DNA of 64,000 nucleotides from Coriobacteriaceae bacterium (lineage in GTDB: Bacteria; Actinomycetota; Coriobacteriia; Coriobacteriales; UMGS124). The notes beneath the pieces are model-generated. The model had not been told where the DNA came from. It searched no databases and saw only the letters and a list, made by a program, of their open reading frames with translations. Numbering within the stretch: position 1 is the first letter of the stretch; each line of letters begins with the position of its first letter. Where the stretch lies: positions 1,619-65,618 of the forward strand of contig JAHZGC010000002.1 of the NCBI GenBank assembly GCA_019421015.1, written 5' to 3'. This document shows positions 5,347 to 63,144 of the stretch, piece after piece. The position numbers and the translations under genes are program-made.

Positions 5347-7059
5347 TTACCCGCGGGCCTGCTCGATGCAGTCGGCCACGGCGCGCAGCAGCGCGATCGA
5401 GGTGTGGGTGGCGCCGCCCACGATGTCGACGTCGGTGCCGTTGGCGGCCGCAATCTCGGCGGGCAGCTGGTCAAAGGCACGGGTGCCGAAGACCGGCGTC
5501 TCGCGGTTCTCGCCCACCTCGACGGCCGCGATGACGCCGCCCTCGATGGTCACGGTCACGTTCATGGGGCCGCCCAGACCGTTGCGCACGGCCTCGTAGG
5601 TGCCGTCGGCGCAGCCCTCGGCCGACACCACGGGCTTCTGGTCCACGAGCCAGTTGTACTTGGCGTGCGTGGCCTCGTCGGCGGCAAGGCTCGCCTCCAC
5701 GGCGTATTCGGGCAGCTCGGTGCCCTCAAAGTCCACGATGCGGTTGGTGGCCATGCGGTCCACCGAGCTCCACACGATCTGGTCGAGCAGGTACGGCTTG
5801 GGGGGAATCTCGTCTTCGGGCTTGAGCTTGAGGATGCGCGCGTCGGCCGGGCACACCAGGGCGCACTGGCCGCAGCCCACGCACCACTTGTCCATGATGC
5901 ACAGGCCGTCCTCGTCCTGGCGCACGGCCATGAGCGGGCAGCGCTCCACGCAGGCCCCGCAGCGCAGGCACTTCTCGGCGTCGTAGTCCAACACGTAGGC
6001 CGAGGCGTTGGGGAACGTGCCGGTCTCGCCCTGCAGCGAACGGTAGGTGCCGAGCAGCGCGCAGTTGTCGCTGCGGCAGAAGCACATGATGTCGGGGTAG
6101 TCGGCGTAGGCGCCCTCGGGTACGTAGCCCAGGTCCACGAGCTTCTCGGCCTCGGCCAGGGCCTCTTCCTTGGTGATGGCGGGCACACCGGTCTCGATAA
6201 AGAACTCCGCCAGCTCGCCAAAGACCATGCAGTGGCAGATGCCCTCCTCGTGCTCCTCCTCGTGGCCGCGCAGGATGGCCTTGTTGCGGCAGCCGCAGGG
6301 CTGGGCGGTAAAGACCGTGTTGCGCTCAAAGATGGCGCGCCAGTCGCGGTAGGGGGCCAGCTTGCCGCCCTCGACCACGTCGGCGCTCACGGGAAACACG
6401 TCGTAGATGGGGTACTGGGCGCCGTTGCCGGCGTCCACGCCCAAGAGGCGGTCGTTCTTCTCGATGAAGTCCTTGTCGATACGGTAGTACAGGTTGGGAA
6501 TGAGCGCGCCCGGCCACGAGTACACGTAGAACCAGTCGACGCCGGCGCGGGTGATGCGGTTGATGAGGCGGCGGTTGGCCAGGTCGTTCAGGATGTCGAG
6601 GGCCTCGGCCTCGCTGCGGTCGGTGAGGCAGGCGTAGTCGTAGGCCGAGAAGCGCTCGAGCAGCGGCAGCTCGTTCCAGTGCTCGGCGTCCTCGAGGCTC
6701 CAGAGCTCCAGGATCATGTCGAAGCTGTAGGCGCCCGGCGTGTTGTTGAGGCCGTTGCTCAGGCGGTTGAGGCGGTTCCACAGGGTCACGTAGGTCTTGT
6801 CGATCACGCGGCCGTCGGGCAGCGTGAGGTCCTCGGTGGCCACCGGCGCGTCCTGGACCATCTTGATCAGCACGTCGCGGTTCTGGTCGAGCAGCTCGTT
6901 GTTAGAAAAGCCGGTGGTGCGCGCCGGCGCGGTGGAGCCGCCGTCGACGTCCTCGGCGAGCGCGACGCCGACTGCGGGGACGGCTGCGGCAGCTGCGGCC
7001 GCGGCTCCCATGGCCCCGATAAAGCCTCTGCGCGAAACGTTCTGGGTGGAGTCGTGCAT
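5347..7059 (-). CDS. Tat-exported 4Fe-4S dicluster protein with C-terminal FMN_bind domain (paralog 1)
   Basis: Start moved to ATG 7059 (GGAAGG SD; the ORF track starts at 7092). Twin-arginine signal SRRGFIG. CxC cysteine clusters and two CxxCxxCxxxCP motifs. C-terminal FMN_bind-like domain with VDIVGGATHTS. Confidence 0.8.
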   Translation of the reverse strand: MHDSTQNVSRRGFIGAMGAAAAAAAAVPAVGVALAEDVDGGSTAPARTTGFSNNELLDQNRDVLIKMVQDAPVATEDLTLPDGRVIDKTYVTLWNRLNRLSNGLNNTPGAYSFDMILELWSLEDAEHWNELPLLERFSAYDYACLTDRSEAEALDILNDLANRRLINRITRAGVDWFYVYSWPGALIPNLYYRIDKDFIEKNDRLLGVDAGNGAQYPIYDVFPVSADVVEGGKLAPYRDWRAIFERNTVFTAQPCGCRNKAILRGHEEEHEEGICHCMVFGELAEFFIETGVPAITKEEALAEAEKLVDLGYVPEGAYADYPDIMCFCRSDNCALLGTYRSLQGETGTFPNASAYVLDYDAEKCLRCGACVERCPLMAVRQDEDGLCIMDKWCVGCGQCALVCPADARILKLKPEDEIPPKPYLLDQIVWSSVDRMATNRIVDFEGTELPEYAVEASLAADEATHAKYNWLVDQKPVVSAEGCADGTYEAVRNGLGGPMNVTVTIEGGVIAAVEVGENRETPVFGTRAFDQLPAEIAAANGTDVDIVGGATHTSIALLRAVADCIEQARG

Positions 7060-7514
7060 GATGGTTTCCCTTCCTCTTCCCGTTCCCCCCACGGGTGGTT
7101 CCCGTGGGAGTTCTCCCTATGGGCCGGCGTTGGCGCTTGGGCGCTTTGGTGTTTTGGCGCTTGGACGCGGCCGGCTGCACGGGGCCCTATGTTGGGCGCG
7201 GAGGGGCGGGCCGTCATGACTACAAAATCGCGCATTTGGCGGAGAAGACCCCCAAAAACCGGGGGCGAAGAACGGGGGAGGAGGGCGCGAAAAACGGAGG
7301 AATACCTGGTGGGGAGGGGTAAATGTGATGGCATACCCCGTGGCATGTAAAGGGTGCACTTTTTGCGAGGTGCTCGTGGGAGGGAGATGGAACGGTGGTG
7401 TTGGGATGGTGGTGGCTGGAGGCATGGGGTGAGAACGGGGCCGAGCACCGAGGAGGGGCGGACGCTGGGGGCTGAAAATCATTCTTCTATATGACCTGCG
7501 CTTGATCGCAAAAC

Positions 7515-7747
7515 ACACCCGCAAAACAGGGGTTCGTGTACCGTATGGTGTTTGATGTATACATGGCCATATGACATTATGAATATGATATTTAAGAAAA
7601 CCCCCGGTAGATGCGATATCCTAAAATCGCCCGGCTCTGGCGGAGCCTGCTTTTGTCGATCGGACACGCGCCGTGGGGCGCAGATGAAGCCCAAAATGGG
7701 CGCGTTGTCTCGAAGCCGCGGTACACGAACCCCGGTTTTGCGGGTGT
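7515..7747. repeat. 29-bp inverted-repeat pair enclosing 175 bp, upstream of gene 5347-7059
   Basis: ACACCCGCAAAACAGGGGTTCGTGTACCG at 7515-7543 and its reverse complement (28/29) at 7719-7747. An AT-rich tract follows at 7750-7800. A second pair lies at 43033-43254. Confidence 0.8.
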
Positions 7748-7877
7748 AGTTTCCTAAAAAAGAGTTAATTTTTAATAAGTTGATATATGGTCCACGGCTA
7801 ACGACTACTGTGAGAACGTTGGTCTACCCAATGGGTTGGAAGTTTCCCCTGGAAACCGGGAGCCTTCCCCCAATTAT

Positions 7878-9569
7878 CTACCCCTGCTCGTCCATAAGCG
7901 TCAAGAACGCCTGCTTGCCGTTCACGCCGGCGCGGGCGTAGGCGCGGGCGTAGGCGCGGGCGAGCCCCGACTTCACGGTCTCGCGCGAGATGCTCAGGCG
8001 GTCGGCGATGTTGTCGATGGTGTAGCCGTGGATGGCCGTGAAGAGGATCTCGCGCTCGCGTTGGGTGAGGCCGTGGGCGTTGCAGGCCAGCTCGAAGCGG
8101 CGGCAGAAGTCCGCCTCTTGTTGGGCGAAGGGTGGGACAGCGGAGGAGTTTCCGGAGACGTCGGGGCACCCGGGAATGTCGACCTGCGACACGGCCGCGC
8201 GTACCCTGGGCTGAGGTCGCGCCCCTCCCGCCGAGGGTTTCTCCGCTGCGGCGCCCTGCGCTAACCCGCTCCGGGCCAAGCGGTCGGCCACCGACCCGCC
8301 CCGCGCCCACATCAGGAAGAAGTCCGCCGTGCCTGCGGTGGCGATTGCGCCCAGGGCCACCACGACCGTGTGGTCCACCACGGCCGCCGTGCTGTTGGCC
8401 GGCGAGCTGCCCAGCACGGCAAGGCCGACGATGCGGGTGAGCTGGTTCGAGAGCATCACGGCGCTGGCCAGGCAGAACAGCTGGCCGGCCTGGGCGGGCC
8501 GGGCGGTCGCCACCTCGTAGGCCCACAGCAAGATAACGGTCTGCAGCACGTTGTAGCCGGTTTCGAGCAGGAGCTCGCCCAGATGGCCGGCGTCGGTGCC
8601 CCACCCCAGGGCGGTCGTGACCAGGGCGACGCACCAGATCAGGGCAAGCGTAGCCGCCGAGGGCACGGGACGCGGGCTGCTGGCGACAAAGACGCAGTAC
8701 AGCACCACGAGCACGCGGGTCGTGAACGAGAGGATGTCGCCGGCAGCCCCGAAGCGCGCCCCCTCGCCGGTGGCGCCGTAGCCGGTGGCCTGCACCACGA
8801 ACCCCTGCACCAGCATAAGGGCCAGCGCCACGACCGTGGCGGCGGCCCAGGGGACGAGCGAGGGGGCGGGTGGGCAACCCTGGGTCGCGTTGGCGGAGAG
8901 GGGCCCGTTGCCGAGGGTCGCTGCTGGGCCCTGCGGCTCCGAGGGTGTCTCGGCGGCTCCGCACCCAGGTGCCGGTGCCTCGCGGGTCTGGGAATCTCGC
9001 AAACACAGGGCGCACAGGGTGAGCACGGCCAGGTCGGCGACTACCCATTGGGCGAGGCCTACGCCGGCGCCCAGGTTCGAGAAGACCAGGCTGTAGGCGG
9101 TGGCGACCAAAAACCCGAAGGCTATCGCCAGCCGGGCTCGCGTGCGGTCCAGACGCAGCGTGGCGTTCAACAGGCAGGGGAGTGCCACCGTGATGAAGAT
9201 GCCGTCGATCACGCAGGCGGCAAAGCCGAGAGCCGCCAGGTCCTGCGGGGCCGCGGCGAACCGTGCGAATAGCAGGCAGCCGATGTGGCCGGCAACGGCG
9301 GCCGCGGCAATGGGCAGGAGCACGGGGTTTCCCACGGGGCGCCGTGCCAGCGCACAACCCCAAAGGACCAGCAGGATTGTGGCCACGGCTCGGCCGCCCG
9401 GAAGATACACGGGGCCGCCGAAGACGTCTTGGGCGCGCGAGGCCCAGATCGACCCCAGCAAAAGGCCGATGCCGGCTGCCACAATCGCGGCAAGGGCCGT
9501 GGCGCTTGGGGGGCGTTTAGCCAAGGCCGGCTGCCACCCGACGTTGCTGTGCGTGGATGAGTTGTCCAT
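7878..9569 (-). CDS. Membrane-anchored LuxR-family transcriptional regulator
   Basis: The first ~450 aa are multiple hydrophobic helices. The C-terminal LuxR HTH reads REREILFTAIHGYTIDNIADRLSISRETVKSGLARAY. Confidence 0.8.
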   Translation of the reverse strand: MDNSSTHSNVGWQPALAKRPPSATALAAIVAAGIGLLLGSIWASRAQDVFGGPVYLPGGRAVATILLVLWGCALARRPVGNPVLLPIAAAAVAGHIGCLLFARFAAAPQDLAALGFAACVIDGIFITVALPCLLNATLRLDRTRARLAIAFGFLVATAYSLVFSNLGAGVGLAQWVVADLAVLTLCALCLRDSQTREAPAPGCGAAETPSEPQGPAATLGNGPLSANATQGCPPAPSLVPWAAATVVALALMLVQGFVVQATGYGATGEGARFGAAGDILSFTTRVLVVLYCVFVASSPRPVPSAATLALIWCVALVTTALGWGTDAGHLGELLLETGYNVLQTVILLWAYEVATARPAQAGQLFCLASAVMLSNQLTRIVGLAVLGSSPANSTAAVVDHTVVVALGAIATAGTADFFLMWARGGSVADRLARSGLAQGAAAEKPSAGGARPQPRVRAAVSQVDIPGCPDVSGNSSAVPPFAQQEADFCRRFELACNAHGLTQREREILFTAIHGYTIDNIADRLSISRETVKSGLARAYARAYARAGVNGKQAFLTLMDEQG

Positions 9570-9778
9570 AGCCCGTGCGCCCCCTCAAAGCAGCGGCCTG
9601 CTTTACGGGATGAGTCTACCGTTGGGTCGTGTCCGTCGCAAGCGGCCTGCTGGTCCTTGCCGGGTGTGCGTGGGTGCTCGCGGGGGTGCTGGGTGCTCGC
9701 GGGGGTGCTGGGTGCGGGCCGCTTCATGCCGGTGCCCGAAACGGCAGATGCGCCTAAGTTTTCGGCGAGCCCCGAATC

Positions 9779-9993
9779 GGCAGATAGCGCCGCGCTTTGG
9801 GGGTTCTGGATAGGCTCGCAGGTTGCCTGGGTGTCCCTGTTGAAGCGTGGTGTCTCCGGAGTTCTCTGCGCACCTGGTAAAACCACAGTTCAGGAGGTTG
9901 TTGGCAGCGAGGGTTTTCCGCTGCGGGCGAACGGGGTGCATCAGGGCCCCTTGCGGGCCTATCCAGAACCTCCTTTATGCGGAAACATCTCGG
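9779..9993. repeat. ~215-bp TIR element, copy 2
   Basis: GGCAGATAGCGCCGCGCTTTGGGGGTTCTGGATAGG (9779-9814) and CCTATCCAGAACCTCCTTTATGCGGAAACATCTCGG (9958-9993). Internal AAAACCACAGTTCAGGAGG block. Confidence 0.8.
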
Positions 9994-10136
9994 TCGAGAG
10001 TTGCTATCAAAATTAAAAAACCGTACATTGCCGCAGTCCCGTACATCCCGTAAATCCGTGGAACCCGCCGAACATCGCTGCTGTTTGGCGGGTTCCATGA
10101 GGCGTATATGCTTGCGGGTCTTGCAGTTCTCTCGTG

Positions 10137-10549: not shown

Positions 10550-12028
10550 TTACCAGATCAGGCCGGCCTCGAAGCGGCGGGCGCACAGCATGTTGTTCAT
10601 GTCAAAGATGTCCTGCGGCAGCGGGGGGAAGGAGTCCTCGGGCAGGGGCTCCAGGATGCGCGTGCTCACCGGGCAGACGATGGTGCACTGGCCGCAGGCA
10701 AAGCACAGCTCTCCCACCTGCGGGGTACCGTCGGGGCCGTCCATGGTGATGCACTGCATGGGACAGCGATCGGCGCAGGCGCCGCACTTGAGGCACTGGT
10801 CGAGGTCGGCCGTGATCTTGTAGTGGCGGTTGACCTGCCAGGTGTTGGAGTCGGCGAGGATGCCCTCGTCGTGTAGGGCCTTGAACGAGGCGATCTCGTT
10901 GCAGCAGTCGCCGTGGCAGGCGCAGATGGTCTCGGCCTCCTTGGAGAGGATGTGCTGCAGGATGAACCCGTCCTCCACGTGGCGGTCGATCATCGCGAGG
11001 GCCTCTTCGCGCGAGATCTCGCGGCCCACGCCGTGGTCGATCCAGAACTGGGCCTCCTCGCCGCAGGAGAGGCAGGTCTCGTAGCGGTGGCCGCAGGGCT
11101 CGGTGTAGGCTTCGCTCAGGTCGTACTCGCCAAAGCCGTAGTTGGGGTCGCCGTTCACGAGTTCGAGCTTGCCCAGGTTGCTGTTGAGGAAGCGGCAGGA
11201 GCAGGGCGAGAGAGAGAACTTGTTCTTGGTGGCCCAGATGGCGCGGAGGTCGTCGTAGGGGTAGATGGCGCCGTCTTTGACCGACTCGCGGCTCACGGGG
11301 GCGGGGCCAAAGAAGTGCGCGCCGCTCTTGTCGTAGGCAACGTGGTTGATGTCACCGCTCATGAGCAGGAAGTCGAAGTAGTTGTCCATGCTGCGGGCAA
11401 AGTCGACGTCGTGGTACTCATAGATGCCCTGGACAAACGACACCTGAGCGTACAGGGTGCCGCGGTCATTGTTGATGACGTTGAGCCAGGCGCGGGAGGC
11501 CAGCGACTCGCAAACGCGCTCGCACTGCTCGAGGTCGCGGCCCGACTCGGCGGCGAACTCGTAGGCGGTGAAGTGACGGCCCATGGGCATGTCGAGGAAG
11601 CACTCGGCCTCCTCCTCGGACATGTCTTTATAGGCAAAGGTGTAACTCATATCGCTCTCGTCGTTGCCCAGGCCGTAGCTGTAGAGGCCAACGAGACGGG
11701 TGACCTTCTTAAAGACCACGGGGATCACGGTGCCGTCGGAGCACACGTAATCCTCGGTCATGGAGTCGAGGTACAGCTTGCGCCGGTAGTTGAGCTCCTC
11801 GAGCGGCATGGTGCAGCCGCCCACGGCCTTGATGGCCTCGGGGGTGCCGTTCCAGTCGCCGAGGTGCGAACCGGGGCCGCTCCACGGCAGCCCGGCGCCG
11901 CGCGGGTCGATGCCCGACTCGTCCAGGCCCGCGAACGCCTGGCTGGCACCAAGGCCGACGCCCATCGCGCCCATGCCGGCGGCCATGGCGGCCGCGCCCA
12001 TGAAGTTCCTCCTGCTTAGTTCGATCAT
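10550..12028 (-). CDS. Tat-exported 4Fe-4S dicluster protein (paralog 2)
   Basis: Start set at ATG 12028 (GGAGAAGG SD). Tat signal SRRNFMG. SPCSCR, CGHRYETCLSCG and CACHGDCC cysteine clusters. CLKCGACADRCP and CFACGQCTIVCP motifs. Confidence 0.8.
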   Translation of the reverse strand: MIELSRRNFMGAAAMAAGMGAMGVGLGASQAFAGLDESGIDPRGAGLPWSGPGSHLGDWNGTPEAIKAVGGCTMPLEELNYRRKLYLDSMTEDYVCSDGTVIPVVFKKVTRLVGLYSYGLGNDESDMSYTFAYKDMSEEEAECFLDMPMGRHFTAYEFAAESGRDLEQCERVCESLASRAWLNVINNDRGTLYAQVSFVQGIYEYHDVDFARSMDNYFDFLLMSGDINHVAYDKSGAHFFGPAPVSRESVKDGAIYPYDDLRAIWATKNKFSLSPCSCRFLNSNLGKLELVNGDPNYGFGEYDLSEAYTEPCGHRYETCLSCGEEAQFWIDHGVGREISREEALAMIDRHVEDGFILQHILSKEAETICACHGDCCNEIASFKALHDEGILADSNTWQVNRHYKITADLDQCLKCGACADRCPMQCITMDGPDGTPQVGELCFACGQCTIVCPVSTRILEPLPEDSFPPLPQDIFDMNNMLCARRFEAGLIW

Positions 12029-13255: not shown

Positions 13256-13396
13256 GGCGGCCGTGGGGCTCGATGGCTTGGGGTGCGGCGAACCATAATG
13301 AAGCATTACCGAAGCAATAGTGGGCCTCTCTGCCTGTCCTGGGGCATCGGAGTCCGGCCACCCGCGACAACTTGCACTCACGTCCGACGCCAAACC

Positions 13397-13611
13397 GGCA
13401 GATAGCGCCGCGCTGTGGGGGTTCTGGATAGGCGGTCCGGGGCCGAGGGAGCCCTTCTGCTCCCAAGGTCTTCTCCGCCGCAAAGGGGCACCCAATAAAC
13501 CCGCAGGTCAGAAGGGTGTTGGCTGCGAGATTTTCTCCCCTGCGCGCACATGGGGTACATCGGACCCCTCGCGAGCCTATCCAGAACCCTCATTCTGCGG
13601 AAGCATCTCTG
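13397..13611. repeat. ~215-bp TIR element, copy 3
   Basis: GGCAGATAGCGCCGCGCTGTGGGGGTTCTGGATAGG (13397-13432) and CCTATCCAGAACCCTCATTCTGCGGAAGCATCTCTG (13576-13611). Confidence 0.8.
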
Positions 13612-13644
13612 TTTCGGGGCCCCCTCGCCTGCACCGCCTCCCTC

Positions 13645-14951: not shown

Positions 14952-15245
14952 TGGCGCCAAAGGCGGGTTCGGTAAGGGTTAGCGGATTTGGGTGGCACCG
15001 GACCCGAATTGTGTAAGGGTCAAGTCCGAAGGCTGGCGCCAAGCTCGAGTTTTGTAAGGGGAAGGGCTGGGTGCTGGCACCAAAAGCGAGTTCTGTAAGC
15101 GCGCAATCCGACTTTCCGGACGAGAGGCCCTCGAATTACTTACACAGCGCCGATTTGGTGCCATTCTCACCCACTGATTCTTACAAAACTCTAGTTCGGT
15201 GCCACCATCCCGTTGGCAAGTTTACAGAACTCGCATTCGGTGCCG
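14952..15245. repeat. Phased motif array, family 1, locus A (4 direct + 3 inverted units)
   Basis: TGGC[A/G]CC-N11-12-TGTAAG units start at 14952, 14993, 15034 and 15075. Inverted units start at 15139, 15180 and 15221. Phasing is 41 bp with a 64-bp central step. Confidence 0.9.
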
Positions 15246-19777: not shown

Positions 19778-20030
19778 GGGCACCAGGCTCGCGTTATGTA
19801 AGCCTCCGCGGCCCTGGGTGGCACCAACGGCGAGTTCTGTAAGTCCCGAAAGGAGAGAATGGCACCGAATCGGCGTTCTGTAAGTCACGGGGCGCGCATG
19901 TTGCCGGTTTTTGCCCCCCGGTCCTTACAAAACCCGCGTTCGGTGCCGCAGGAAGTCTCGCCGGTTTACACAACTCGCATTCGGTGCCAGCCCTGCCCGG
20001 GCGCCCTTACACAACGCCGGTTTAGTGCCA
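19778..20030. repeat. Phased motif array, family 1, locus B (3 direct + 3 inverted)
   Basis: Direct units start at 19778, 19819 and 19860. Inverted units start at 19924, 19965 and 20006. Same 41/64-bp geometry as locus A. Confidence 0.9.
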
Positions 20031-21755: not shown

Positions 21756-23681
21756 ATGATCGATTGCATCGGTGTCATTGGCGGAGAAGCCCGTTCCCTG
21801 AGCCGCCGCTCGTTCATCGCTGCCGCCGGTGTTGCGGCGGCGGCCGTCCTGGGGCCCCGCACGGTGCTGGCTACCGAGTCGAGCGCACCGGCCGTGCAGA
21901 TGACTCCCGGTGTTTACGAGGTCACGGCCCAGGGATGCTACGCCCCCTACACCGTCGAGGTGGAGGTGTCCGAGGATGCCATTGTGGATGTGCGCGTGAC
22001 CGACACCCACGAGTCCAAGTACATGGGCCAGCGTGCGCAGGAGACCATCGCCAAGAACGTCGTGGAGCACCAGACGGTCAACGTCGACAGCATCACCGGC
22101 GCCACGATCACCACGACGACCATGAAGGACGCGATCCGCCAGGCTTTGACCGAGGCCGGCGCATCGGAAGACATGTTTGCCGACGACGCGGTGACCCCTG
22201 AGCCCGCCGGTGTCGACGGGGAGCTTGCGGAGTTTGCCCCCGACGTCATCGTGGTAGGCGCGGGCATCGCCGGTCTCACCGCGGCTCTTACCGCGGCTGA
22301 CCGGGGGGCCAAGGTGCTGGTCCTGGAGCAGAACACGTGCTTCGGCGGCTCCACCATGTACAGCGGCGGCTACATCGCCGCGGCCGGCGGCACCACGCTG
22401 CCCCAGTACGGCTACGAGACCGACCCCGACCGGCTGTACGCGTGGTTCATGGACGGCGATGAGTCCACGTTCCGTCCCGAGCTCTCGTACGTGGCCGCCT
22501 ACAACAGCGGCGCCGCCCTCGACATGCTGACCAAGTACGGCGCCGCCTGGCTCGAAGGCGGTCCCATCGGCGACGGCGTGGGCGCCCACAGCAACAACGC
22601 CTCCGCGGGCAACTCCACCGAGGGCGTCGACTACTTCGCGGCCTACCTCATCTCCTCGGAGCAGCGCGGCCTGAGCATCTTCGAGGGCACTGCCGACGCC
22701 GTGCAGGGCCTCGTCGACGAGGGCAAGCTGGCCTATGCGCTTAACGCCAAGGTGGTCGAGCTCGTCACCGACGAGGCCGGCGCTGTGGTGGGTGTGCGCA
22801 CCGAGGACGGCGGCGAGTATCGTGCGCCTGCGACGATCCTCTCGTGCGGCGGCTACTGTGCCAACGAGGAGATGCTCTCCGAGATCTACACCCGCTGGGC
22901 GCGCTCGGGCAACTCGAGCTCCATCGGCAACATGTTCGCCGCCGCCACCGCGATCGGTGCCGTGCTGCACGACATGGACTTCTGCCGCACCGACGGCGGC
23001 ACGCTGCCCATGTACGAGGGCAACGGCATGCCCGTGCACCGCGAGATCCAGTTCAAGACCCCCGGCCTGGTGTGGCTCAACACCGACGGCGTTCGCTTCT
23101 GGAAGGAAGGCTCCAGCCCGGCCCGCGCCTACTTCGACACCGACCGCAACACGGTGTACTGCGTTGCCAACCAGGCGCTTCTCGACACCGTCGACATGAT
23201 CTACTACGGTAACTACGCCACCTACGTGACCGACAGCAACAACGAGGAGCTCGAGCGCCTGGCCCAGGAGGGCAAGGTCGTGTTCAAGGGCGAGACCATC
23301 GAGGAGGCGGCCGAGAAAGCCGGGCTTGACCCGCAGGTCGTGGCCGCCGAGATGGCCAAGTACAACGGCTACTGCGCCGCCGGGGTCGACGAGGACTTCG
23401 AGAAGGACGCCAGCGCGCTCATCGCCATGGAGGAGGGGCCCTTCTACATCTTCGAGACCATCCCCAACGTCAAGAACACCTACGGCGGCCTGGTCATCGA
23501 CGAGGGTGCCCGCGTGGTCGACGCCGCCGGCGAGCCCATCCGCGGCCTCTATGCCGCCGGCGAGACCGCGGGCAACTATAACATCGTGCGCCCCACCGCC
23601 TCGTACTACGGCGGCAACCTGCACCGCGGTGCCACCTTTGGCTACACGGCCGCACTGAGCGCCATCGCCGACTTCGCGTAA
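21756..23681 (+). CDS. Tat-exported FMN_bind + FAD flavoprotein reductase (urocanate/fumarate-reductase-like)
   Basis: ATG 21756 after AAGGAG. Tat signal LSRRSFIAAAG. FMN_bind domain with VDSITGATITT. FAD fold DVIVVGAGIAGLTAALTAADRG. Confidence 0.85.
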   Translation: MIDCIGVIGGEARSLSRRSFIAAAGVAAAAVLGPRTVLATESSAPAVQMTPGVYEVTAQGCYAPYTVEVEVSEDAIVDVRVTDTHESKYMGQRAQETIAKNVVEHQTVNVDSITGATITTTTMKDAIRQALTEAGASEDMFADDAVTPEPAGVDGELAEFAPDVIVVGAGIAGLTAALTAADRGAKVLVLEQNTCFGGSTMYSGGYIAAAGGTTLPQYGYETDPDRLYAWFMDGDESTFRPELSYVAAYNSGAALDMLTKYGAAWLEGGPIGDGVGAHSNNASAGNSTEGVDYFAAYLISSEQRGLSIFEGTADAVQGLVDEGKLAYALNAKVVELVTDEAGAVVGVRTEDGGEYRAPATILSCGGYCANEEMLSEIYTRWARSGNSSSIGNMFAAATAIGAVLHDMDFCRTDGGTLPMYEGNGMPVHREIQFKTPGLVWLNTDGVRFWKEGSSPARAYFDTDRNTVYCVANQALLDTVDMIYYGNYATYVTDSNNEELERLAQEGKVVFKGETIEEAAEKAGLDPQVVAAEMAKYNGYCAAGVDEDFEKDASALIAMEEGPFYIFETIPNVKNTYGGLVIDEGARVVDAAGEPIRGLYAAGETAGNYNIVRPTASYYGGNLHRGATFGYTAALSAIADFA

Positions 23682-23696
23682 GACGTGGAGTGGGGT

Positions 23697-23736
23697 ATGC
23701 GGCGGGTGTCCCGTGAGGGATGGGCTCCCGCCGCAT
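23697..23736 (+). terminator. Hairpin downstream of reductase gene
   Basis: ATGCGGCGGG (23697-23706) pairs with CCCGCCGCAT (23727-23736). The loop is 20 nt and there is no clear U-tail. Confidence 0.4.
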
Positions 23737-23753
23737 GCCGTTGTGGTCTTTCG

Positions 23754-24046
23754 TGGCGCCAAAGAGGGTTCTGTAAGTCCGGGACGCCCCGGGTGGCACC
23801 GAATGCTTGTTTTGTAAGTCTCGACGACCCCGGGTGGCACCAGACGCGAGCTCTGTAAGCCCGGGTAGCGGAATATGGCACCGGATCGGTGTTTTGTAAG
23901 CCCGGGTGTGCGCATAACGCCGGTTTTTGCGTGCGAGTTCTTACAAAACTTGCATCTGGTGCCAGCTTGGGCCAGCTGGCCTTACACAACGCCGATCCGG
24001 TGCCATTGGCTGCGCCGGACTTTTACCAAACCCGTATTCGGTGCCA
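23754..24046. repeat. Phased motif array, family 1, locus C (4 direct + 3 inverted)
   Basis: Direct units start at 23754, 23794, 23835 and 23876. Inverted units start at 23940, 23981 and 24022. Central step 64 bp. Confidence 0.9.
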
Positions 24047-24078: not shown

Positions 24079-25443
24079 CTATCGTCGCCCCCCGAACGGC
24101 CCCTGGTCGCAGCTCGTCTCCACCGCAAAGCGCGCCAGCTCGTCGACGACCACCGCATGTCGCCCTGCAGGGGAAAGCCCCGGCACCCCCAGTATCCCAA
24201 GCGCCCTCCCGAGTTCTTCTCCCAGCCCGCTCTGGGCGAGAAGCCCCGCCACTTGGTCTGCCAGGTCAAAGTAGTACGAGACGGACTCGGGCTTTGAGAT
24301 GCGGTAACGGCAGCCGAACGCGCAGCGCTTGTCGAGGGCCTGGAGCTTGCGGGGCGAGAACGGGTGGCAGTGGCCGGGCTCGTGGAGAAACAGCAGTGTG
24401 GCGGCCGTGCGGTAGGTGGCGCTTGCCGATGGCCGGGCAACGGCGCTGCAGATGAGGCTGCGCTGGCGCTCGATAAGAACGGCGCAGGCGTCCGTGAAGG
24501 GGGCGATGCGCTCCTCAAGCGGGCGGTCGGGGGAGAAGAGCCTGCCGAGGGCACCCCCGAAGACCTCGGGTTCTTGGCTGGTAAAGACGCCCAGCTCCCT
24601 ATAAGCACCCCGGGCGCCGCATTCGTCCAGCAAGGGCGCCCCGTCTTCGAGGCATCGGCCGAGCATCGACGGTAAATCGGGCGTCGCAGGATCCCAGTGC
24701 CGGCCAAAGTCCGCAGCCGCCCGGGCCGACGCCGGGGCCTGGCGGGTGGGGCGCTCCCCCAACCGGTCGAGGAACTCCCGGGCGAGCCCCTCTGTCTGCT
24801 CAGGGTCGATGCGGGGCGCTCGCCTCTGCGGCAGGGCGGGGGTGGCGCCGCGTGCTAGGGCCTCCAGGAACTCGGGGGGCGTGGAGGGCGTGCCTGCTGG
24901 GGGGGCCACCCGCAGGGGGTCGATCCGCCACTGCTGCGTCGCCAGGCCCGTGCGGGCGGGGATTTTGGACCGGGCGACGGCGTCATAGGCGTGAATAAAG
25001 GCGCAGACAAGGGCGTCGCGCTCGTCCGCATCCTCGGCATCGCCGGCGGACAGCCCCATGGCGGCGGCAAACAGGTCCCACAGCCGCTCGATCTCCTCGC
25101 CCATGGTTTTGTCCCGGTGCGAGAACATGCGCACCTGATAGTCCTCGACCTCGGGGCAGTCATAAAACGAGGGGGTCTCAGCTACCTCGAGCTCCAGGGC
25201 TTCGCAGACCAGCAGGAACAGGCGTTCCTTGCGGGCCTCGGGCATGGGGCGGCACCAGGCGGCCATGAAGGTGAAGGGGTCCAGGGCGTCGAGCGCCTCT
25301 CCGGCTTCTACGATGGGGAACTGCACGCAGCAGGTTTCGAGCGCCCAAGAAAGGGAGTCGACGAGCCCCTCTTTGTCGTTGCGGCGCGCGAGCAGCCTCT
25401 TGGCCACCGATCGGTGAGCCTGCGCCCAGCTGGGTTTTTCCAT
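24079..25443 (-). CDS. Hypothetical protein (454 aa), no recognisable domain
   Basis: Long ORF with GC-rich third positions and a GGAGAGGAGA SD before ATG 25443. No TM segments or motifs recognised. Confidence 0.6.
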   Translation of the reverse strand: MEKPSWAQAHRSVAKRLLARRNDKEGLVDSLSWALETCCVQFPIVEAGEALDALDPFTFMAAWCRPMPEARKERLFLLVCEALELEVAETPSFYDCPEVEDYQVRMFSHRDKTMGEEIERLWDLFAAAMGLSAGDAEDADERDALVCAFIHAYDAVARSKIPARTGLATQQWRIDPLRVAPPAGTPSTPPEFLEALARGATPALPQRRAPRIDPEQTEGLAREFLDRLGERPTRQAPASARAAADFGRHWDPATPDLPSMLGRCLEDGAPLLDECGARGAYRELGVFTSQEPEVFGGALGRLFSPDRPLEERIAPFTDACAVLIERQRSLICSAVARPSASATYRTAATLLFLHEPGHCHPFSPRKLQALDKRCAFGCRYRISKPESVSYYFDLADQVAGLLAQSGLGEELGRALGILGVPGLSPAGRHAVVVDELARFAVETSCDQGPFGGRR

Positions 25444-25569: not shown

Positions 25570-26040
25570 TTAGATCTCGATGCTCGGGATCTCCGCGTGG
25601 GCGTCTCCGCCGGCGGCGTTGATGCCCGCCATGCGCCCGAAGGTCACGCAGCGGCCGTGGCCGATGCCGGCGACGAAGGTGGGGTAGTCGCCTGCGCCGA
25701 AGAAGTCGCCGGCGGCCGAGCCGCAGACGTAGAGCCCCTCGATGGGCTGGTCGTCCTCGTCGAGCACGCGGCACTGCAGGTCGGTGCGCAGGCCGCCGCA
25801 CATGGTGAGCAGGCAGGCCTGCAGGTGGCCGGCGTAGAACGGCGGGTTCTTGACCGGGTAGAGGATCTCGGCGCGCTTGCCGAAGTCCTCGTCGTTGCCG
25901 TTGTCGCAGAGCTCGTTGTAGCGCTCGACCTCGGCCACGAACACGGCGGGGTCGCAGCCGATCTGCTCGGCCAGCTCCTCGAGCGTGTCGGCCTGGAAGG
26001 TCAGGCCGCTTTCGAGCTCGCCCTCCAGGGTCGCCTTCTG
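25570..26040 (-). pseudogene. C-terminal remnant of a flavoprotein reductase (5' part deleted)
   Basis: ...ADTLEELAEQIGCDPAVFVAEVERYNELCDNGNDEDFGK...PIEGLYVCGSAAGDFFGAG... aligns with the last ~155 aa of the intact paralogs. There is no N-terminal domain or start. Confidence 0.7.
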
Positions 26041-26074
26041 GGCGTCGATAGGCCGGGGTTGCAACCGGGGTTCC

Positions 26075-26221
26075 ATCGCCGACGAGCACGGTGTGTCGCG
26101 CGAGACCGTGAAGACCCACATCGCCGGCATCTACCGCAAGGTCCACGTCCATTCGCACCAGGAGCTGATCGCCGCCCTCGAGGCGAGGGCGGCCCAGGTC
26201 GAGAAGGACGAGACGACGTAG
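26075..26221 (+). pseudogene. C-terminal stub of a LuxR-family HTH
   Basis: IADEHGVSRETVKTHIAGIYRKVHVHSHQELIAAL is only the second half of a LuxR HTH. The upstream sequence is the opposite-strand reductase remnant. Confidence 0.65.
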
Positions 26222-27572: not shown

Positions 27573-27658
27573 GCAGATTGCAGCGTTTCCGTTAGGCAGA
27601 TTGTAGCACTTTCATTGTGCAGATTGCAGCGTTTCCGTTAGGCAGATTGCGGTCTGCC
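27573..27658. repeat. 23-bp tandem repeat x3.7 in divergent intergenic region
   Basis: GCAGATTG[C/T]AGC[G/A][T/C]TT[C/T]C[G/A]TT[A/G][G/T] units start at 27573, 27596, 27619 and 27642. Confidence 0.85.
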
Positions 27659-33416: not shown

Positions 33417-33526
33417 GGGCACCTCTTCTTTGCCGGTCGGTTGTCTCCCATAATACGCCCGATTATGGCTGGCTATGGCGGTACTGCCCGGGATATCGAC
33501 GTTCTCTATGAGCGTGTTTGCGCCCT

Positions 33527-33646
33527 GTTCGCGAACGGTTCGCGCACGGCTGCCCTGTTCGCGAACGGTTCGCGCACGGACGCCCGGTTCGCGAACGGTT
33601 CGCGCACGGACGCCCGGTTCGCGAACGGTTCGCGAACGGACGCCTA
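33527..33646. repeat. 30-bp tandem repeat x4 containing palindrome GTTCGCGAAC
   Basis: Units start at 33527, 33557, 33587 and 33617. Each unit reads GTTCGCGAACGGTTCGCG[C/A]ACGG.... The last unit overlaps the PFOR stop codon. Confidence 0.9.
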
Positions 33647-37662: not shown

Positions 37663-37782
37663 TGGCAAGAAATTCGAGATATCAGGATGTTTTACATGCT
37701 TGGAGGGCCTCTGTCATCCTGATATCTTGCATTTTTTGCCAATGGGGCCGGAAAACTTCCTGATTTATCGCAATTCTTGCCA
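37663..37782. repeat. Phased motif array, family 2, locus F (1 direct + 2 inverted)
   Basis: TGGCAAGAAATTCGAGATATCAGGA at 37663. Inverted TCCTGA...TTGCCA units start at 37717 and 37758 (41 bp apart). Confidence 0.8.
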
Positions 37783-37860
37783 GCGGTCCTCGCCCCCCGG
37801 GTAAATCATGAAATGGAGGCGAGACCGCCGACAGCGTGCCGGGATTCCCCCAGGTCGAGC

Positions 37861-38072
37861 TGACACCAAACTGGCGTTCTGTAAGTGGAATCGACCTGTG
37901 TTGGCACCGAATACGAGTTTTGTAAGCAGGGTCGGGGGCTTATCGCCCAAAATCGAGGGCCCGGGCTTACAGAACGCCGGTTTGGTGCCACTTTCCGCTC
38001 GACGGGCTTACAAAACTCGCATCCGGTGCCAACGCGCGCCCCGCGCCCTTACAAAACTCGCATTTGGTGCCG
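37861..38072. repeat. Phased motif array, family 1, locus D (2 direct + 3 inverted)
   Basis: Direct units start at 37861 and 37902. Inverted units start at 37966, 38007 and 38048. 41/64-bp geometry. Confidence 0.9.
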
Positions 38073-43325: not shown

Positions 43326-44171
43326 ATGAAGACAACAACTGCGCATCGTGTGGCCGCTTTAACCGGTTCGGCGCTCATGCTGGCCGGGATGGGCGCGGGA
43401 GGGGGTTTTGCCTCTGCGGGCGAGGCCCCGGCCACCGTTTCCCAAGAGGGCGTGTTTCAGAAGGTTGCTGCCGATAAGGGCGCTGTGGCCAAGGCCCCAG
43501 CCGTCGCCAGAACGTTTGCCTACAGCCAGGGTGCGCCTGCTTCCATCGACACGATCGCCCGGGTCATGGGCACACCTCGATACGCCCGCAGCTCCACCTA
43601 TGCGGGTGCCCCGCAGAGCCTCAACGCCCTGGACTGGACCATCGAGGTGGGTGGCGCCGTAGAAAACGAGTTTGTCGCCACGGTGGGCGATCTGGTAGAG
43701 AACGGACCCATGAACATCGTCATGGGTTGCAGCTGTGCGAGCAACCCGGCCAACGGCGTGGCCTCCGCGGACACCGACGTGAGCGGTGTCATGTTTCGCT
43801 CCATCGTCGATGCGGCCAACCCTGACGCTGGGGTAAACACTGTGGTCTTCACCTCGGCGGACGGCTACGAGGTGGCGCTTCCCCTGCGCTATTTGGACCA
43901 GCGCTACTCCCTCATCGGGTTCGACGTTAACGGCCAGCCGCTGAGCGATTCCATGGGCGGCTCCAACCAGCTTTGGCTCTCGGGCACCTCGGCCAACAAC
44001 CACGCTTTGTGCGGTTGGTCGGCCCCACAATCTCCCCCTGGGTCGCGGGGCCGAGGACGCTTGCCCGCCATGGCAAGAAACCACGGAAATCAGGATGCCG
44101 GCCGGGTCTTACGGCAGGAAATCAAACTAATCAGGATGTTCGGGGGTTTACGGTGGCAGAAAATGGCATAA
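43326..44171 (+). CDS. Secreted molybdopterin-oxidoreductase-domain-like protein (Oxidored_molyb/YedY-like); 3' end uncertain
   Basis: Signal peptide MKTTTAHRVAALTGSALMLAGMGAGGGFASA. WTIEVGG...FVATVGDL...MGCSCASN...VVFTSADGYEVALPL...FDVNGQPL...GGSNQLWL pattern. The last ~45 codons run into repeat array G. Confidence 0.55.
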   Translation: MKTTTAHRVAALTGSALMLAGMGAGGGFASAGEAPATVSQEGVFQKVAADKGAVAKAPAVARTFAYSQGAPASIDTIARVMGTPRYARSSTYAGAPQSLNALDWTIEVGGAVENEFVATVGDLVENGPMNIVMGCSCASNPANGVASADTDVSGVMFRSIVDAANPDAGVNTVVFTSADGYEVALPLRYLDQRYSLIGFDVNGQPLSDSMGGSNQLWLSGTSANNHALCGWSAPQSPPGSRGRGRLPAMARNHGNQDAGRVLRQEIKLIRMFGGLRWQKMA

Positions 44172-44293
44172 AACCTCGTAAATCAGGAAATTTACCAGGC
44201 ATTTGGACTGGTCGGCTACCATCGGGTTCCTGATTTCTCATGTCTCTTGCCGTTCGGTACCTTGGGCATCCTGATTTCCCGGACTTTTTGCCA
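44071..44293. repeat. Phased motif array, family 2, locus G (3 direct + 2 inverted)
   Basis: Direct units start at 44071, 44112 and 44164. Inverted units start at 44228 and 44269. Steps are 41, 52, 64 and 41 bp. Confidence 0.85.
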
Positions 44294-44355
44294 TATGGTC
44301 TCCGCGACTCGGGTAGTATGGAGCCATCCCCCCCGTCCGTGAACTAAGCGACCGC

Positions 44356-44608
44356 TGGCACGAAACTGGAGTTATGCAAGGGGGCAGAGCGTCCACTGGT
44401 ACCGAATGCGAGTTTTGTAAGGGTGCCCGGAGCCATCTGGCACCAAATCGGAGATATGAAAGGGCTCGCGGACAAAAACCGGTATCGTGCGTGCTCCCGG
44501 ACTTACAAAACTCGCGTCTTGTGCTATCTCCGCGCCTCTTGGCTTACAGAACCCGCATTCGGTGTCACCTCCCTCCCCGGGGGCTTACACAACTCGCGTC
44601 CGGTGCCA
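44356..44608. repeat. Phased motif array, family 1, locus E (3 degenerate direct + 3 inverted)
   Basis: Direct units start at 44356, 44397 and 44438. Inverted units start at 44502, 44543 and 44584. 41/64-bp geometry. Confidence 0.85.
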
Positions 44609-53715: not shown

Positions 53716-55200
53716 ATGAACCTCTCCAAGTCGCGCTACGTCAAGGGCATCCAGTGCCCCAAGATCCTCTGGATGGACCTCCACATGCCCGAGCAATTCA
53801 ACGACGCGGCCTTGAATCAGGCAGCGCTCGACACCGGCAGCGCGGTGGGCGACCTGGCCATGGGCTACTTCGGCGACTACGTCGAGGTGCCCTTTGCCCC
53901 GCAGGGCTTCTCCGCCATGGCCGCCACGACGCGGGAGTTGCTCGACGCTGCGACGCCCGTCGTCTGCGAGGCCACATTTGCCTGCGACGGGTGCCTCTGC
54001 ATGGTCGACATCCTGCTCACGGAGCCCGACGGCGTGCGTCTCGTGGAGGTCAAGTCGTCCACCTGCATGAGCGACATCTACCTGCACGACATGGCGTTCC
54101 AGACCTGGGTGCTGCGCCGCTGCGGGTTCAACGTCAAGTCGGCGGCCCTCATGCATCTCAACAACCAGTATGTGCGCCGGGGAGAGCTCGACCTGCGGCA
54201 GCTCTTCACCGTTGAGGACTGCACCGAGCAGGTGTTTGCGATGCAGCCCGAGGTGGGGGCTGCCGTCGAGCGGCTCAAGGCCGTGGCGGAGCAACCCGAC
54301 GAGCCGCCGATCGCCTGCGGTGCCCGCTGCAAGAAGCCCTACGAGTGCGGCTACTGCGGCTGGTGCTGGCGCGAGCTGCCCACGCCCAACGTCTTTGACC
54401 TGAGCCGCATGCAGATGAAGAAGGGTCTGGAGCTGCTCGACCGGGGAATCGTGAGCTTCCAGGACCTTCTCGACCACAAGGTTAAGCTGAATGGCCGGCA
54501 GGCGGTGCAGGTGCGCTGCGAGGTCGAGGGGCTCGACACCGTTATCGACCGCAAGGCCGTGGCCGGGTTCCTGGACGGGCTGAGCTTTCCGCTGTACTTC
54601 CTTGACTTCGAGACGTTCCAGCCGGCCGTGCCGCCCTTCGACGGCGTGCGTCCCTACCAGCAGATTCCCACCCAGTACTCGCTCCACGTACTCCGCGAGC
54701 CGGGGGCCGAGCTGGAGCACCGCGAGTTTTTGGCCGAGGCGGGCAAGGACCCCTGCCGCGCTGTGGCCGAGCGTCTGGTGGCCGACATCCCCATGGGCGC
54801 GTGCACGCTCGCCTACAACATGACCTTTGAGAAGGGCCGCATCGGCGAGCTGGCCGCGGCCTTCCCCGACCTGGCCGAGCACCTGCTGGCCATCAACGCC
54901 GGCATGGACGACCTGCTCAAGCCGTTCAGCAGCGGTGCCTACTACGCCCGGGCCATGGGCGGCAGCAACTCGATCAAGCGGGTGCTGCCGGCGCTGTTTC
55001 CCGACGATCCCGAGCTCGACTACCACAGCCTCGACGGTGTACATAACGGCAGCGAGGCCATGGCCGTCTACGCCGACCTGGTGAACATGGCTTCCGAGGA
55101 GGCTGCGCGCACGCGCGAGAACCTGCTGCGCTACTGCGAGCTCGACACCTACGCGATGGTGAAGATCTGGCAGAAGCTCGTCGAGGCCGTGGAGGGGTAG
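53716..55200 (+). CDS. DUF2779-like protein (PD-(D/E)XK/Cas4-like nuclease fold family)
   Basis: N-terminus MNLSKSRYVKGIQCPKILWMDLHMPEQF is the characteristic DUF2779 start. A cysteine cluster CGARCKKPYECGYCGWC lies mid-protein. Confidence 0.75.
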   Translation: MNLSKSRYVKGIQCPKILWMDLHMPEQFNDAALNQAALDTGSAVGDLAMGYFGDYVEVPFAPQGFSAMAATTRELLDAATPVVCEATFACDGCLCMVDILLTEPDGVRLVEVKSSTCMSDIYLHDMAFQTWVLRRCGFNVKSAALMHLNNQYVRRGELDLRQLFTVEDCTEQVFAMQPEVGAAVERLKAVAEQPDEPPIACGARCKKPYECGYCGWCWRELPTPNVFDLSRMQMKKGLELLDRGIVSFQDLLDHKVKLNGRQAVQVRCEVEGLDTVIDRKAVAGFLDGLSFPLYFLDFETFQPAVPPFDGVRPYQQIPTQYSLHVLREPGAELEHREFLAEAGKDPCRAVAERLVADIPMGACTLAYNMTFEKGRIGELAAAFPDLAEHLLAINAGMDDLLKPFSSGAYYARAMGGSNSIKRVLPALFPDDPELDYHSLDGVHNGSEAMAVYADLVNMASEEAARTRENLLRYCELDTYAMVKIWQKLVEAVEG

Positions 55201-59865: not shown

Positions 59866-60092
59866 CCGAGATGCTTCCGCAGAAAGGGGGTTCTGGATAG
59901 GCGCAATCTTTTTTGTTCGAGTTTGCGCTCGGCGGTTGCTTCAAGGGCTAGCGGAGAAATACCTGGTAGATGGGCTGTTTTTATAAGCAGGTACCCACCA
60001 ACTCCAAGGTTTTCTCCCCTAGGGCTGCTACCGGGGGCGTTTGGGCGGTCGAGTTGCCTATCCAGAACCCTGATTATGCGGCGGTATCTGCC
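59866..60092. repeat. ~215-bp TIR element, copy 4 (variant interior)
   Basis: CCGAGATGCTTCCGCAGAAAGGGGGTTCTGGATAGG (59866-59901) and CCTATCCAGAACCCTGATTATGCGGCGGTATCTGCC (60057-60092). Confidence 0.8.
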
Positions 60093-60169
60093 AAAATGGC
60101 CTCCGTAGGCGTTCTGCGGAGAAGTCCCGGAGGTAGTCGGCGAGCGCCCATGCGTGATAGCCTCCCTCC

Positions 60170-61270: not shown

Positions 61271-61327
61271 GGCGCAGGGCCGGGAAGCCTAAAACCGGCA
61301 GGCCGCGAGACCGAGAAGCTGCGAAAC

Positions 61328-61543
61328 CCGAGATGCCTCCGCATAATCAAGGTTCTGGATAGGCGGAGGTGGGCGCCGTGCGCTACCCGATGGCCCGCCT
61401 TCGCTCTCGTGCGATTTCGGCCCCAGCAAAATCGCAGTTCAGGAGGGTCATTGCCTGCGGGACCTCCCTGCGTTGCGGGCATCCGGGGACATCGGGGCGC
61501 TCGCGGGCCTATCCAGAACCCTCATTCCGCGGCGCTATCTGCC
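61328..61543. repeat. ~215-bp TIR element, copy 5
   Basis: CCGAGATGCCTCCGCATAATCAAGGTTCTGGATAGG (61328-61363) and CCTATCCAGAACCCTCATTCCGCGGCGCTATCTGCC (61508-61543). Confidence 0.8.
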
Positions 61544-62551: not shown

Positions 62552-62691
62552 GACTTTCCCGAGCTTGAAGAGTTTTGCATAGCGTACTGCGAGGATCACG
62601 GGGAATCGGTGGAGGGGTAGCGACGGGGAGCGCGACAATGGTGGTCGCAAGATGTGCTACGGACTGATCGGTTTTCAGCAAGCTGAGAAGT

Positions 62692-62903
62692 CCGAGATGC
62701 TTCCGCGGAATTGGGGTTCTGGATAGGCGGGTGGGGGTGCTTTGCGCGCCATGGCGGGTCATCTTTGCCTCGCGGGTCCAGGTCTAGTAAAACCGCAGTT
62801 CAGGAGGGTCATTGCCTGGGGGCCTCCCTGTGCTGCGGGCTCGTGGGGACATCGGGGCGCTCGCGGGCCTATCCAGAACCCTCATTCCGCGGCGCTATCT
62901 CCC
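62692..62903. repeat. ~215-bp TIR element, copy 6
   Basis: CCGAGATGCTTCCGCGGAATTGGGGTTCTGGATAGG (62692-62727) and CCTATCCAGAACCCTCATTCCGCGGCGCTATCTCCC (62868-62903). The right half of the interior is nearly identical to copy 5. Confidence 0.8.
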
Positions 62904-63144
62904 GATTCAATGATAATCAAAAGCACAAGTTAGCCTGTCCCGCCCGTGTTGCCCTCATTTAGACAATCGACCCCCGTTTGTCGCGGGTTTGGGTGTTGCG
63001 TCCCCACGCAGGGTACAAGCTCCCCCAAGGCCCCGGTATCCGCGCCGCGCCTACGTCCCGCCCGTGCGTGCTTGCCGGGCGGCGCTTCCCTTGAGTGCGC
63101 GGGCTTCTCGGGCCGGACAACCCGCGTCATGCAAAGGAGTCCAC

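Follow-up and report, generated by a model that had tools for sequence, protein, structure and literature searches.

A set of precisely phased repeats lying between two genes that converge upon it raises the question of what such a structure might be for, and of how it came to be there. The set discussed here, array C, occupies positions 23754-24046 of a 64-kb stretch of DNA (the window, meaning the whole of the stretch analysed) and consists of four direct and three inverted copies of an asymmetric 25-nt unit, TGGCACC-N10-TnTGTAAG. All seven unit starts listed in the original prediction (23754, 23794, 23835 and 23876 in direct orientation; 23940, 23981 and 24022 inverted) were found again, together with the central step of 64 bp and the GCCGGTTTTTGC centre.

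Array C and its neighbouring genes

The left arm of array C lies on the + strand. Its outermost unit, L4 (23754-23777), has lost one base and is thus 24 nt long, shows the variant TGGCGCC, and is separated from L3 by a step of 40 rather than 41. It is followed by L3 (23794-23818, TGGCACCGAATGCTTGTTTTGTAAG), L2 (23835-23859, TGGCACCAGACGCGAGCTCTGTAAG) and the innermost left unit, L1 (23876-23900, TGGCACCGGATCGGTGTTTTGTAAG). The right arm is inverted and reads on the - strand, with R1 (23940-23964) innermost, R2 (23981-24005) next, and R3 (24022-24046), which has two mismatches, outermost. Between the arms lies an oriented core of 39 nt (23901-23939, + strand) which contains GCGCATAACGCCGGTTTTTGC. 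This gap accounts for the 64-bp step from start to start across the centre, and GCCGGTTTTTGC is found within it at 23919-23930.

The gene whose 3' end faces the array from the left encodes a flavin reductase with the Pfam domains FMN_bind and FAD_binding_2 (21756-23681, + strand); strain contigs L004 and L005, where the gene is called at 641 aa, place its start at the same position. From the right, an ORF of 454 aa (24079-25443, - strand), to which precomputed Pfam annotation of its homologues assigns DUF8425, converges on the array and forms the first gene of a strain-variable island. The same island, beside array C, holds a 186-aa ORF (25570-26130) that matches only the C-terminal part of FAD_binding_2 and, judging by that match, is probably a reductase gene fragment.

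A GC-rich hairpin with a U-rich tail (23694-23739, + strand; inverted repeat I8) with a predicted RNA fold of -41.9 kcal/mol is the probable intrinsic terminator of the reductase gene. As this strong hairpin follows the stop codon of the reductase and comes before the first unit, the reductase appears to terminate ahead of the array. The array had been described as lying between two converging 3' ends, with no promoter to regulate, and both statements hold: the reductase (+) ends at 23681, the ORF at 24079-25443 (-) runs towards it, and the terminator at 23694-23739 precedes the array. The conclusion drawn from this placement, namely that a structural or selfish role is to be preferred over that of an operator, is further supported in that the units are never solitary and no regulator gene is consistently adjacent to the arrays. 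A role related to transcription, for instance as a roadblock or terminator, may nevertheless apply. A scan for sigma-70 promoters and terminators returned nothing beyond shuffled expectation, and a sigma-54 promoter was rejected on reading the sequence: the unit opens with TGGCAC, but the distance from GG to GC, at 10 nt, falls short of 12 nt, and TTGC is missing.

A family of six arrays with fixed geometry

Array C belongs to a family (family 1) of which five members, A to E, are spread over 30 kb of the window, while a sixth, F, is found elsewhere in the same species. Besides C, these are array A (14952-15245; 4+3 units), array B (19778-20030; 3+3), array D (37861-38072; 2+3), array E (44356-44608; 3+3, with its core flipped with respect to B and C) and array F (positions 62-314 of contig L045; 3+3), the last lying 140 bp downstream of another flavin reductase gene. 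Array F was the only new locus returned by a search of a representative library with spurious translations of the unit (LTKLAFGA, LQNSHSVP and YKTRIRCH). Its contig is without similarity to the window, and the sample from which it comes carries a protein identical to one encoded in the window. The arrays span 210-295 bp, and all six are intergenic, non-coding and multi-copy.

The geometry of the family is close to invariant. Steps within an arm are exactly 41 bp in 25 of 26 cases, the step across the centre is 64 bp in all six arrays, and the core is 39 nt long throughout. Expressed in helical turns, these steps amount to ~3.9 (41 bp) and ~6.1 (64 bp), which would place all sites on one face of the helix. 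Array C and its family are far above chance expectation, with five matches to the strict unit pattern in the window against none in 100 shuffled sequences. Beyond the arrays we found only matches with three mismatches, at chance level, and conclude that the units never occur singly. In a logo of 30 units each of the 25 positions carries information (TGGCACC-RRA-y-n-s-G-r-G-TT-n-TGTAAG), whereas the 16-nt spacers amount to approximately zero bits. The consensus of the unit, TGGCACCGAATGCGAGTTTTGTAAG, has no internal dyad on direct reading. The outermost units are the most degenerate, the inner ones less so, and an observer approaching an array from either side would meet identical unit polarity, as in terminal inverted repeats.

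All six arrays are situated 34-450 bp downstream of the 3' end of some gene, and none lies between divergent promoters; arrays other than C are, in addition, at least ~200 bp from the next start codon. The original prediction had proposed a genome-wide comparison of positional classes, which we made for the window: four arrays are tandem, one is convergent and none divergent, relative to 18, 7 and 7 gaps of these classes, and five arrays are too few to establish a bias. LuxR-type genes flank arrays A to C, and none neighbours D, E or F. The gene content of the window is typical of the Eggerthellaceae, with many FAD_binding_2 reductases accompanied by LuxR/GerE-type regulators, as well as PFOR and frc/oxc. 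The large complements of reductase-plus-regulator modules carried by these bacteria decide which drugs and dietary compounds they transform. The arrays bracket functional modules: a reductase and a LuxR-type regulator lie between A and B and again between B and C, and frc, oxc and a transporter between D and E.

At none of the six loci was a transposase or recombinase gene found between the arms or next to them; at each locus the arms are separated by the 39-nt core only, which holds neither a transposase gene nor cargo. Pfam searches of 40 ORFs, 30 of them from the window, likewise revealed no transposase or recombinase in the window. Inspection of the flanks for target-site duplications yielded a 5-bp direct repeat, CGAGC, at array D only, and none at the unit boundaries of A, B, C and E.

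Several other repeats were noted in the window. A second dispersed family of ~225 bp (965-1179, 9772-9994, 13390-13612, 59866-60101, 61316-61543 and 62680-62907) has conserved terminal inverted repeats of ~35 nt (GAGATAGCGCCGCAGAATGAGGGTTCTGGATAGGC) and a diverged interior, giving it the look of a classical MITE. Two of its copies bracket the gene at 60170-61270, which codes for a protein of 366 aa with a weak C-terminal signature resembling REase_MTES_1575/DUF559 endonucleases and is encountered on many short contigs. Four tandem 30-bp repeats, each with two palindrome-like GTTCGCG(A/C)AC motifs, abut the PFOR stop codon (33521-33644), and a 23-bp unit, GCAGATTGCAGCGTTTCCGTTAG, is repeated 3.4 times at 27573-27650, ~90 bp ahead of a gene that starts at 27738.

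Conservation within the arrays

When arrays are aligned with one another, their units align while the 16-nt spacers remain at chance identity. The units themselves betray little of how an array was assembled. Symmetric partners (L1 and R1, for example) are no more similar than non-partners or units of different arrays; at variable positions, units of one array are no closer to each other than to those of other arrays; and units at equal positions in different arrays show no raised similarity. The core behaves differently from the spacers in some members: those of B and C are identical at 25 of 39 positions, and that of E, once flipped, matches them at 26-27 of 39, relative to an expectation of ~12. 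The core is thus a module with a direction, and by this measure array E runs opposite to B and C. That entire arrays descend from one common copy was rejected, there being no position-specific homology among units and a common core in B, C and E alone.

The inverted arrangement of the arms suggests a hairpin, and the predicted RNA fold of array C (-155.5 kcal/mol) is indeed far more stable than that of shuffled sequence (z = -6.8). However, when spacers of opposite arms are set against each other as they would have to pair, ~4 of 16 positions agree, no more than chance predicts, and the best predicted pairing is out of register, joining L1 with R2. Given that arm spacers lack complementarity and partner units match no better than others, palindromy is confined to the orientation and geometry of the units. 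Selection for a hairpin was rejected on these two counts, both being at chance, and Rfam gave no match either at gathering thresholds or at E<=1. Conservation confined to units, with unrelated and non-complementary spacers between them, favours an array of protein sites acting at the level of DNA over an RNA hairpin, a CRISPR array or an operator.

Strain variation and constraint

Arrays A to E are kept in place wherever strain contigs (~96-99% identity with the window) were recovered, and these contigs revealed presence/absence polymorphism for none of the five. The phasing is not absolute, as the ortholog of array C in one strain (L005, 11020-11424) has a 3-nt insertion and substitutions in the spacer between R1 and R2, as well as a 1-nt deletion in that between R2 and R3. 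Among strains at least 96% identical, conserved unit positions varied at 6 of 558 sites, compared to 39 of 1496 in flanking intergenic DNA (p = 0.04) and 16 of 748 in the rest of the arrays (p = 0.19). A more diverged comparison, between contig L047 and the left part of array E, found two units differing at 2 of 48 positions and the spacer with its adjacent 66-nt flank at 21 of 80 (p = 0.0016). Small as these numbers are, they point to purifying selection on the units in place.

Strains also differ in gene content at 5347-9569, where the window and contigs L008 and L009 carry a reductase and GerE-regulator module and contigs L006, L007 and L011 an IS256-family transposase instead. The ends of this IS256-family element contain TGTGTAAGTCC and GGGTTTGTAAG, words of the family-1 unit. 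A link between the two is no more than a weak lead: the likeness is limited to an 8-11 nt word (TGTGTAAG/GGGTTTGTAAG), a limit that counts against an origin of the arrays from transposon ends.

An inversion between arrays D and E

One contig departs from the gene order of the window. L047, of 851 bp and from another sample, begins with the PFOR-side flank and array D, through the spacer between R2 and R3, at 96% identity, and continues as the reverse complement of units L2 and L3 of array E and of the left flank of E; its positions 1-851 correspond to 37663-38071 and 44070-44462 of the window. The switch falls inside a single unit, within a block of 19 nt that is identical in R3 of array D and the reverse complement of L2 of array E. 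Read from the sequence, this junction is the one that an inversion of the ~6.4-kb D-E segment would be expected to leave, with array D as one breakpoint and array E as the other. The segment is an oxalate-degradation block comprising genes for a CoA-transferase, an oxalyl-CoA-decarboxylase-like protein, a transporter and a Mo-oxidoreductase. Its order in the window is the same as in the sister species, and is thus ancestral.

The product array in L047 has 2+4 units, and exchange of this unequal type would account for 4+3, 3+3 and 2+3 arrays occurring side by side. The reciprocal D/E junction was not recovered, and the remaining strain contigs follow the order of the window. A single event at 19 nt of identity is compatible with homologous and with site-specific recombination alike.

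Distribution across genomes

The nearest genomes, Raoultibacter massiliensis and a Coriobacteriales MAG, encode reductases of 74-78% amino acid identity, and no units were found at their reductase loci. Scans of 185,579 GTDB species genomes with exact unit patterns, in collections that do not include the host genome, gave no match; a control scan of GTDB with another pattern, that of the sister-family unit, returned matches, chance ones only, which indicates that the scan works. Viral contigs, plasmids and phages had no unit match either, and no autonomous partner with the same ends was found in any of these collections. The sole match in a JGI metagenome scan is a truncated array, a pair of family-1 units spaced at 41 bp where contig L003 ends (10990-11056). 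The organism of that contig has a lower GC content (45-61%), and the genes beside the units, encoding a PPIase and an Rce1-like protein, are ordinary ones.

Two contigs of sister species, L019 and L020, are syntenic with the D-E region (PFOR of 81-83% amino acid identity), and neither contains a family-1 unit. The reductase beside array C has an ortholog (85% amino acid identity) in L019 only of the two, where it is followed by a hairpin terminator and, after 119 bp, by a different converging gene, with no array. The genes downstream in L001, L002 and L019 are not orthologous, so that none offers an exact empty site for array C. In the gap between CoA-transferase and PFOR where the window has array D, L019 encodes (8484-9521) a homologue, 38% identical, of the 366-aa protein described above.

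Contig L020, from sister species GCA_029782595.1, has arrays of its own. One (8645-8885) is a composite inverted array of a 27-nt unit, TGGCGRATTNTCYTGGGATGTGTACGA, with a 62-bp period; the other (10916-11062) has 2+2 copies of a 25-nt unit, TGCCAAAACGCCCCCGCCGTGTACG, with a 32-bp period. Both units have the ends TG.C...GTGTA.G, as the family-1 unit does, and one of the two arrays directly follows the PFOR stop codon. With their own units and periods, these arrays indicate a design common to a small clade in which unit sequence and period vary by species.

Interpretation of the arrays

The explanation we favour, tentatively, is that these are paired, transposon-end-like arrays of multiple binding sites, the product of a single episode of spread as a non-autonomous element, and that at present they are fixed, under constraint and recombinogenic. 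Array C would then be one copy of a lineage-restricted interspersed element made of two opposed blocks of 2-4 units with a 41-bp phase around a 39-bp core, most likely acting as DNA. We infer that each unit would bind a single protein monomer, sequence-specific and with a bipartite binding domain. Steps of 41 bp (~4 turns) and 64 bp (~6 turns) would set the sites on one face, allowing cooperative assembly in which the arms pair across the core in a complex of the synaptic type. Such an architecture would be that of two transposon ends, each with several sites for transposase binding, paired without cargo, and the element would have spread in an ancestor of the species after its split from the sister species. 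Today the arrays would persist as fixed features with units under constraint, serving as crossover points for rearrangements.

Several observations lead to this reading. Firstly, the geometry is near-invariant, information is confined to the units, and these change less than neighbouring DNA. Secondly, the arrays are restricted to one lineage, their arms show identical polarity towards the outside, and solitary units are absent. Thirdly, the species-specific units and periods in L020 suggest a fast co-varying specificity, typical of the ends of mobile elements. Lastly, the crossover of the inversion lies inside a unit, and a second, classical MITE-like family occurs in the same window. Other observations oppose it. 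No transposase or recombinase lies at the six loci, the collections searched gave no partner element, there is no clear duplication of the target, and insertion polymorphism was not seen. The copies have no spacer sequence in common, which is unusual for a family descended from one master copy. The outer units are the more degenerate ones, whereas the terminal site is the critical one in transposon ends, and constraint on units in place is not expected of a purely selfish relic.

Alternatively, the arrays may be host boundary elements, that is, platforms for a host DNA-binding or nucleoid-associated protein selected at operon borders. Such a platform might act as a two-way polar roadblock to transcription, an insulator or supercoil barrier, or a nucleation site for chromosome folding; REP/BIME elements act as supercoil barriers for gyrase. 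This reading is possible, if rather unlikely. Units that seem constrained in place, strict geometry with free spacers, fixation in all strains recovered, and the position of all six arrays 34-450 bp past a 3' end, none of them between divergent promoters, are consistent with it, as is the equal unit polarity that polymerases would meet from both sides. However, a host architecture would be expected to be conserved among relatives, while one sister species has different units and periods and GTDB genomes have none, and arrays are missing both from the D-E region syntenic in sister species and from behind the orthologous reductase. The positional classes fit random placement among intergenic gaps, and the phasing is broken by +3 and -1 nt in one strain.

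We regard as improbable a function at the level of RNA, in which the array, as a 3' UTR, would fold into a long interrupted hairpin and, in the manner of REP-like elements, terminate transcription or shield the mRNA from 3' exonucleases. The stability of the predicted fold, the location of all arrays downstream of 3' ends, and the lack of any other terminator before the array for the (-) strand gene beside array C speak in its favour. Opposed to these are the chance-level complementarity of the arm spacers, partners that match no better than non-partners, the out-of-register L1-R2 pairing, termination of the reductase at its own hairpin ahead of array C, and the lack of any Rfam match; furthermore, it is hard to see what a strict 41-bp phasing would mean for a hairpin of RNA.

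An equally improbable reading at the level of DNA would have the arrays as cis-sites of a DNA-binding or recombination system that is undescribed and still active, such as a domesticated transposase or recombinase, whose protein would coat the units, pair the arms and promote inversion or exchange of modules. If true, this would amount to chromosomal module-shuffling in gut Eggerthellaceae, with a unit sequence and period particular to each species. The narrower proposal that the units are sites for a recombinase which inverts or shuffles metabolic gene modules between arrays, akin to a shufflon, appears distinctly unlikely. The junction in L047, where the PFOR-side flank of D is joined within one unit to the reverse-complemented left flank of E, would follow from it, as would the bracketing of functional modules (A-B, B-C and D-E), and the 4+3, 3+3 and 2+3 variants fit unequal exchange between units. 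Yet only one event was seen, its reciprocal junction was not recovered, the other strain contigs are collinear, and no recombinase gene is nearby; with the crossover in a 19-nt identical block, ordinary homologous recombination suffices. Finally, it is highly implausible that the arrays serve as operators of a local transcription factor such as the LuxR-type regulators that neighbour arrays A to C, as array C follows a terminator between two 3' ends and has no promoter, arrays D, E and F have no LuxR neighbour, and the unit is asymmetric, 25 bp long and nowhere found as a single site.

Returning to paired transposon-end-like arrays, the combination of strict geometry and free spacer sequence provides a clean handle for finding the putative DNA-binding protein. 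Should that protein be derived from a transposase, the arrays would be one of few examples in bacteria in which paired ends with multiple sites have been preserved as a fixed part of the genome. As constrained elements at module borders, one pair of which coincides with inversion breakpoints, they could help to insulate or rearrange the gene sets of Eggerthellaceae.

Comparison with known systems

We found no description of such arrays in Eggerthellaceae in the literature searched. Two familiar types of repeat array were rejected. A CRISPR array has one orientation, many units, spacers of ~21-72 nt and a leader or cas genes close by, whereas the arrays have opposed blocks of 2-4 units and 16-nt spacers; no cas domains were detected in the scanned ORFs, the only trace being a sub-threshold Cas4-like match at 53716-55200. 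An iteron origin or plasmid-type centromere, of which a replicon has one or a few beside rep or par genes, is at odds with five arrays within 30 kb and the absence of rep or par domains among their neighbours.

Transposon ends with several transposase-binding sites are found in Tn7 (3+4 TnsB sites), Mu (L1-3/R1-3), Tn402/Tn5053 and IS21. Like the ends of Tn7, Mu, Tn402 and IS21, the arrays comprise several asymmetric sites of ~19-25 bp which point in one direction per arm, with the arms inverted and the counts unequal (4+3). Their units begin with 5'-TG, and the element is short, non-coding, intergenic and multi-copy, as are transposon ends and the MITEs derived from them. Unlike transposon ends, the arrays are perfectly regular (41 bp) in both arms and most degenerate at their outer sites, and they differ from both ends and derived MITEs in having no clear target duplication, insertion polymorphism or common spacer sequence, and no partner element in the collections searched.

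Opposed arms around a bent centre are also a feature of cooperative nucleoprotein sites such as P1 parS, the arm sites of lambda attP, the 4+3 hexamers of P1 pac and the left and right DnaA-box arrays of oriC. The arrays resemble these in their opposed, phased sets of sites and fixed-length centre, which would imply a folded higher-order complex. Unlike those sites, which occur once per replicon beside the genes of their own proteins, five arrays lie within 30 kb and none of those genes was found. The polar barriers formed by Tus-Ter sites and by the TTF-I Sal-box arrays behind rRNA genes are similar in that asymmetric sites of ~20 bp are repeated downstream of genes, and their effects depend on the orientation of the site. 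Opposed Ter groups, in contrast, are megabases apart as opposed to 39 bp in the arrays.

The BOX elements of Streptococcus pneumoniae consist of boxA, tandem 45-nt boxB units and boxC. As with BOX and the BIME/REP elements of E. coli, the arrays are intergenic mosaics of modular build, specific to a species, in which the number of internal units varies. BOX units, however, are tandem in one orientation and conserved throughout, while REP units are imperfect palindromes (hairpins) that alternate; the arrays have asymmetric units in two one-way, opposed blocks with free spacers. BOX elements are mentioned in PMC10969869, which also treats the Correia/NEMIS elements as prokaryotic MITEs with a central IHF site. 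These, too, are small, palindrome-like intergenic repeats with a functional centre, and Correia elements affect neighbouring genes and genome plasticity (PMC10969869). A Correia element, though, has a single terminal repeat per end, conservation over its whole length and a TA duplication (PMC10969869), whereas the arrays are conserved in their phased units only.

Measured against MITEs in general, the arrays are small, non-coding, intergenic and multi-copy and possess terminal inverted repeats in the form of arms that are inverted blocks of units; their copies do not align over the whole length, and neither insertion polymorphism nor empty sites were seen among close relatives. What sets the arrays apart within the interspersed intergenic repeats of bacteria is their construction from two opposed, phased blocks of asymmetric units, with conservation limited to the units and their geometry.
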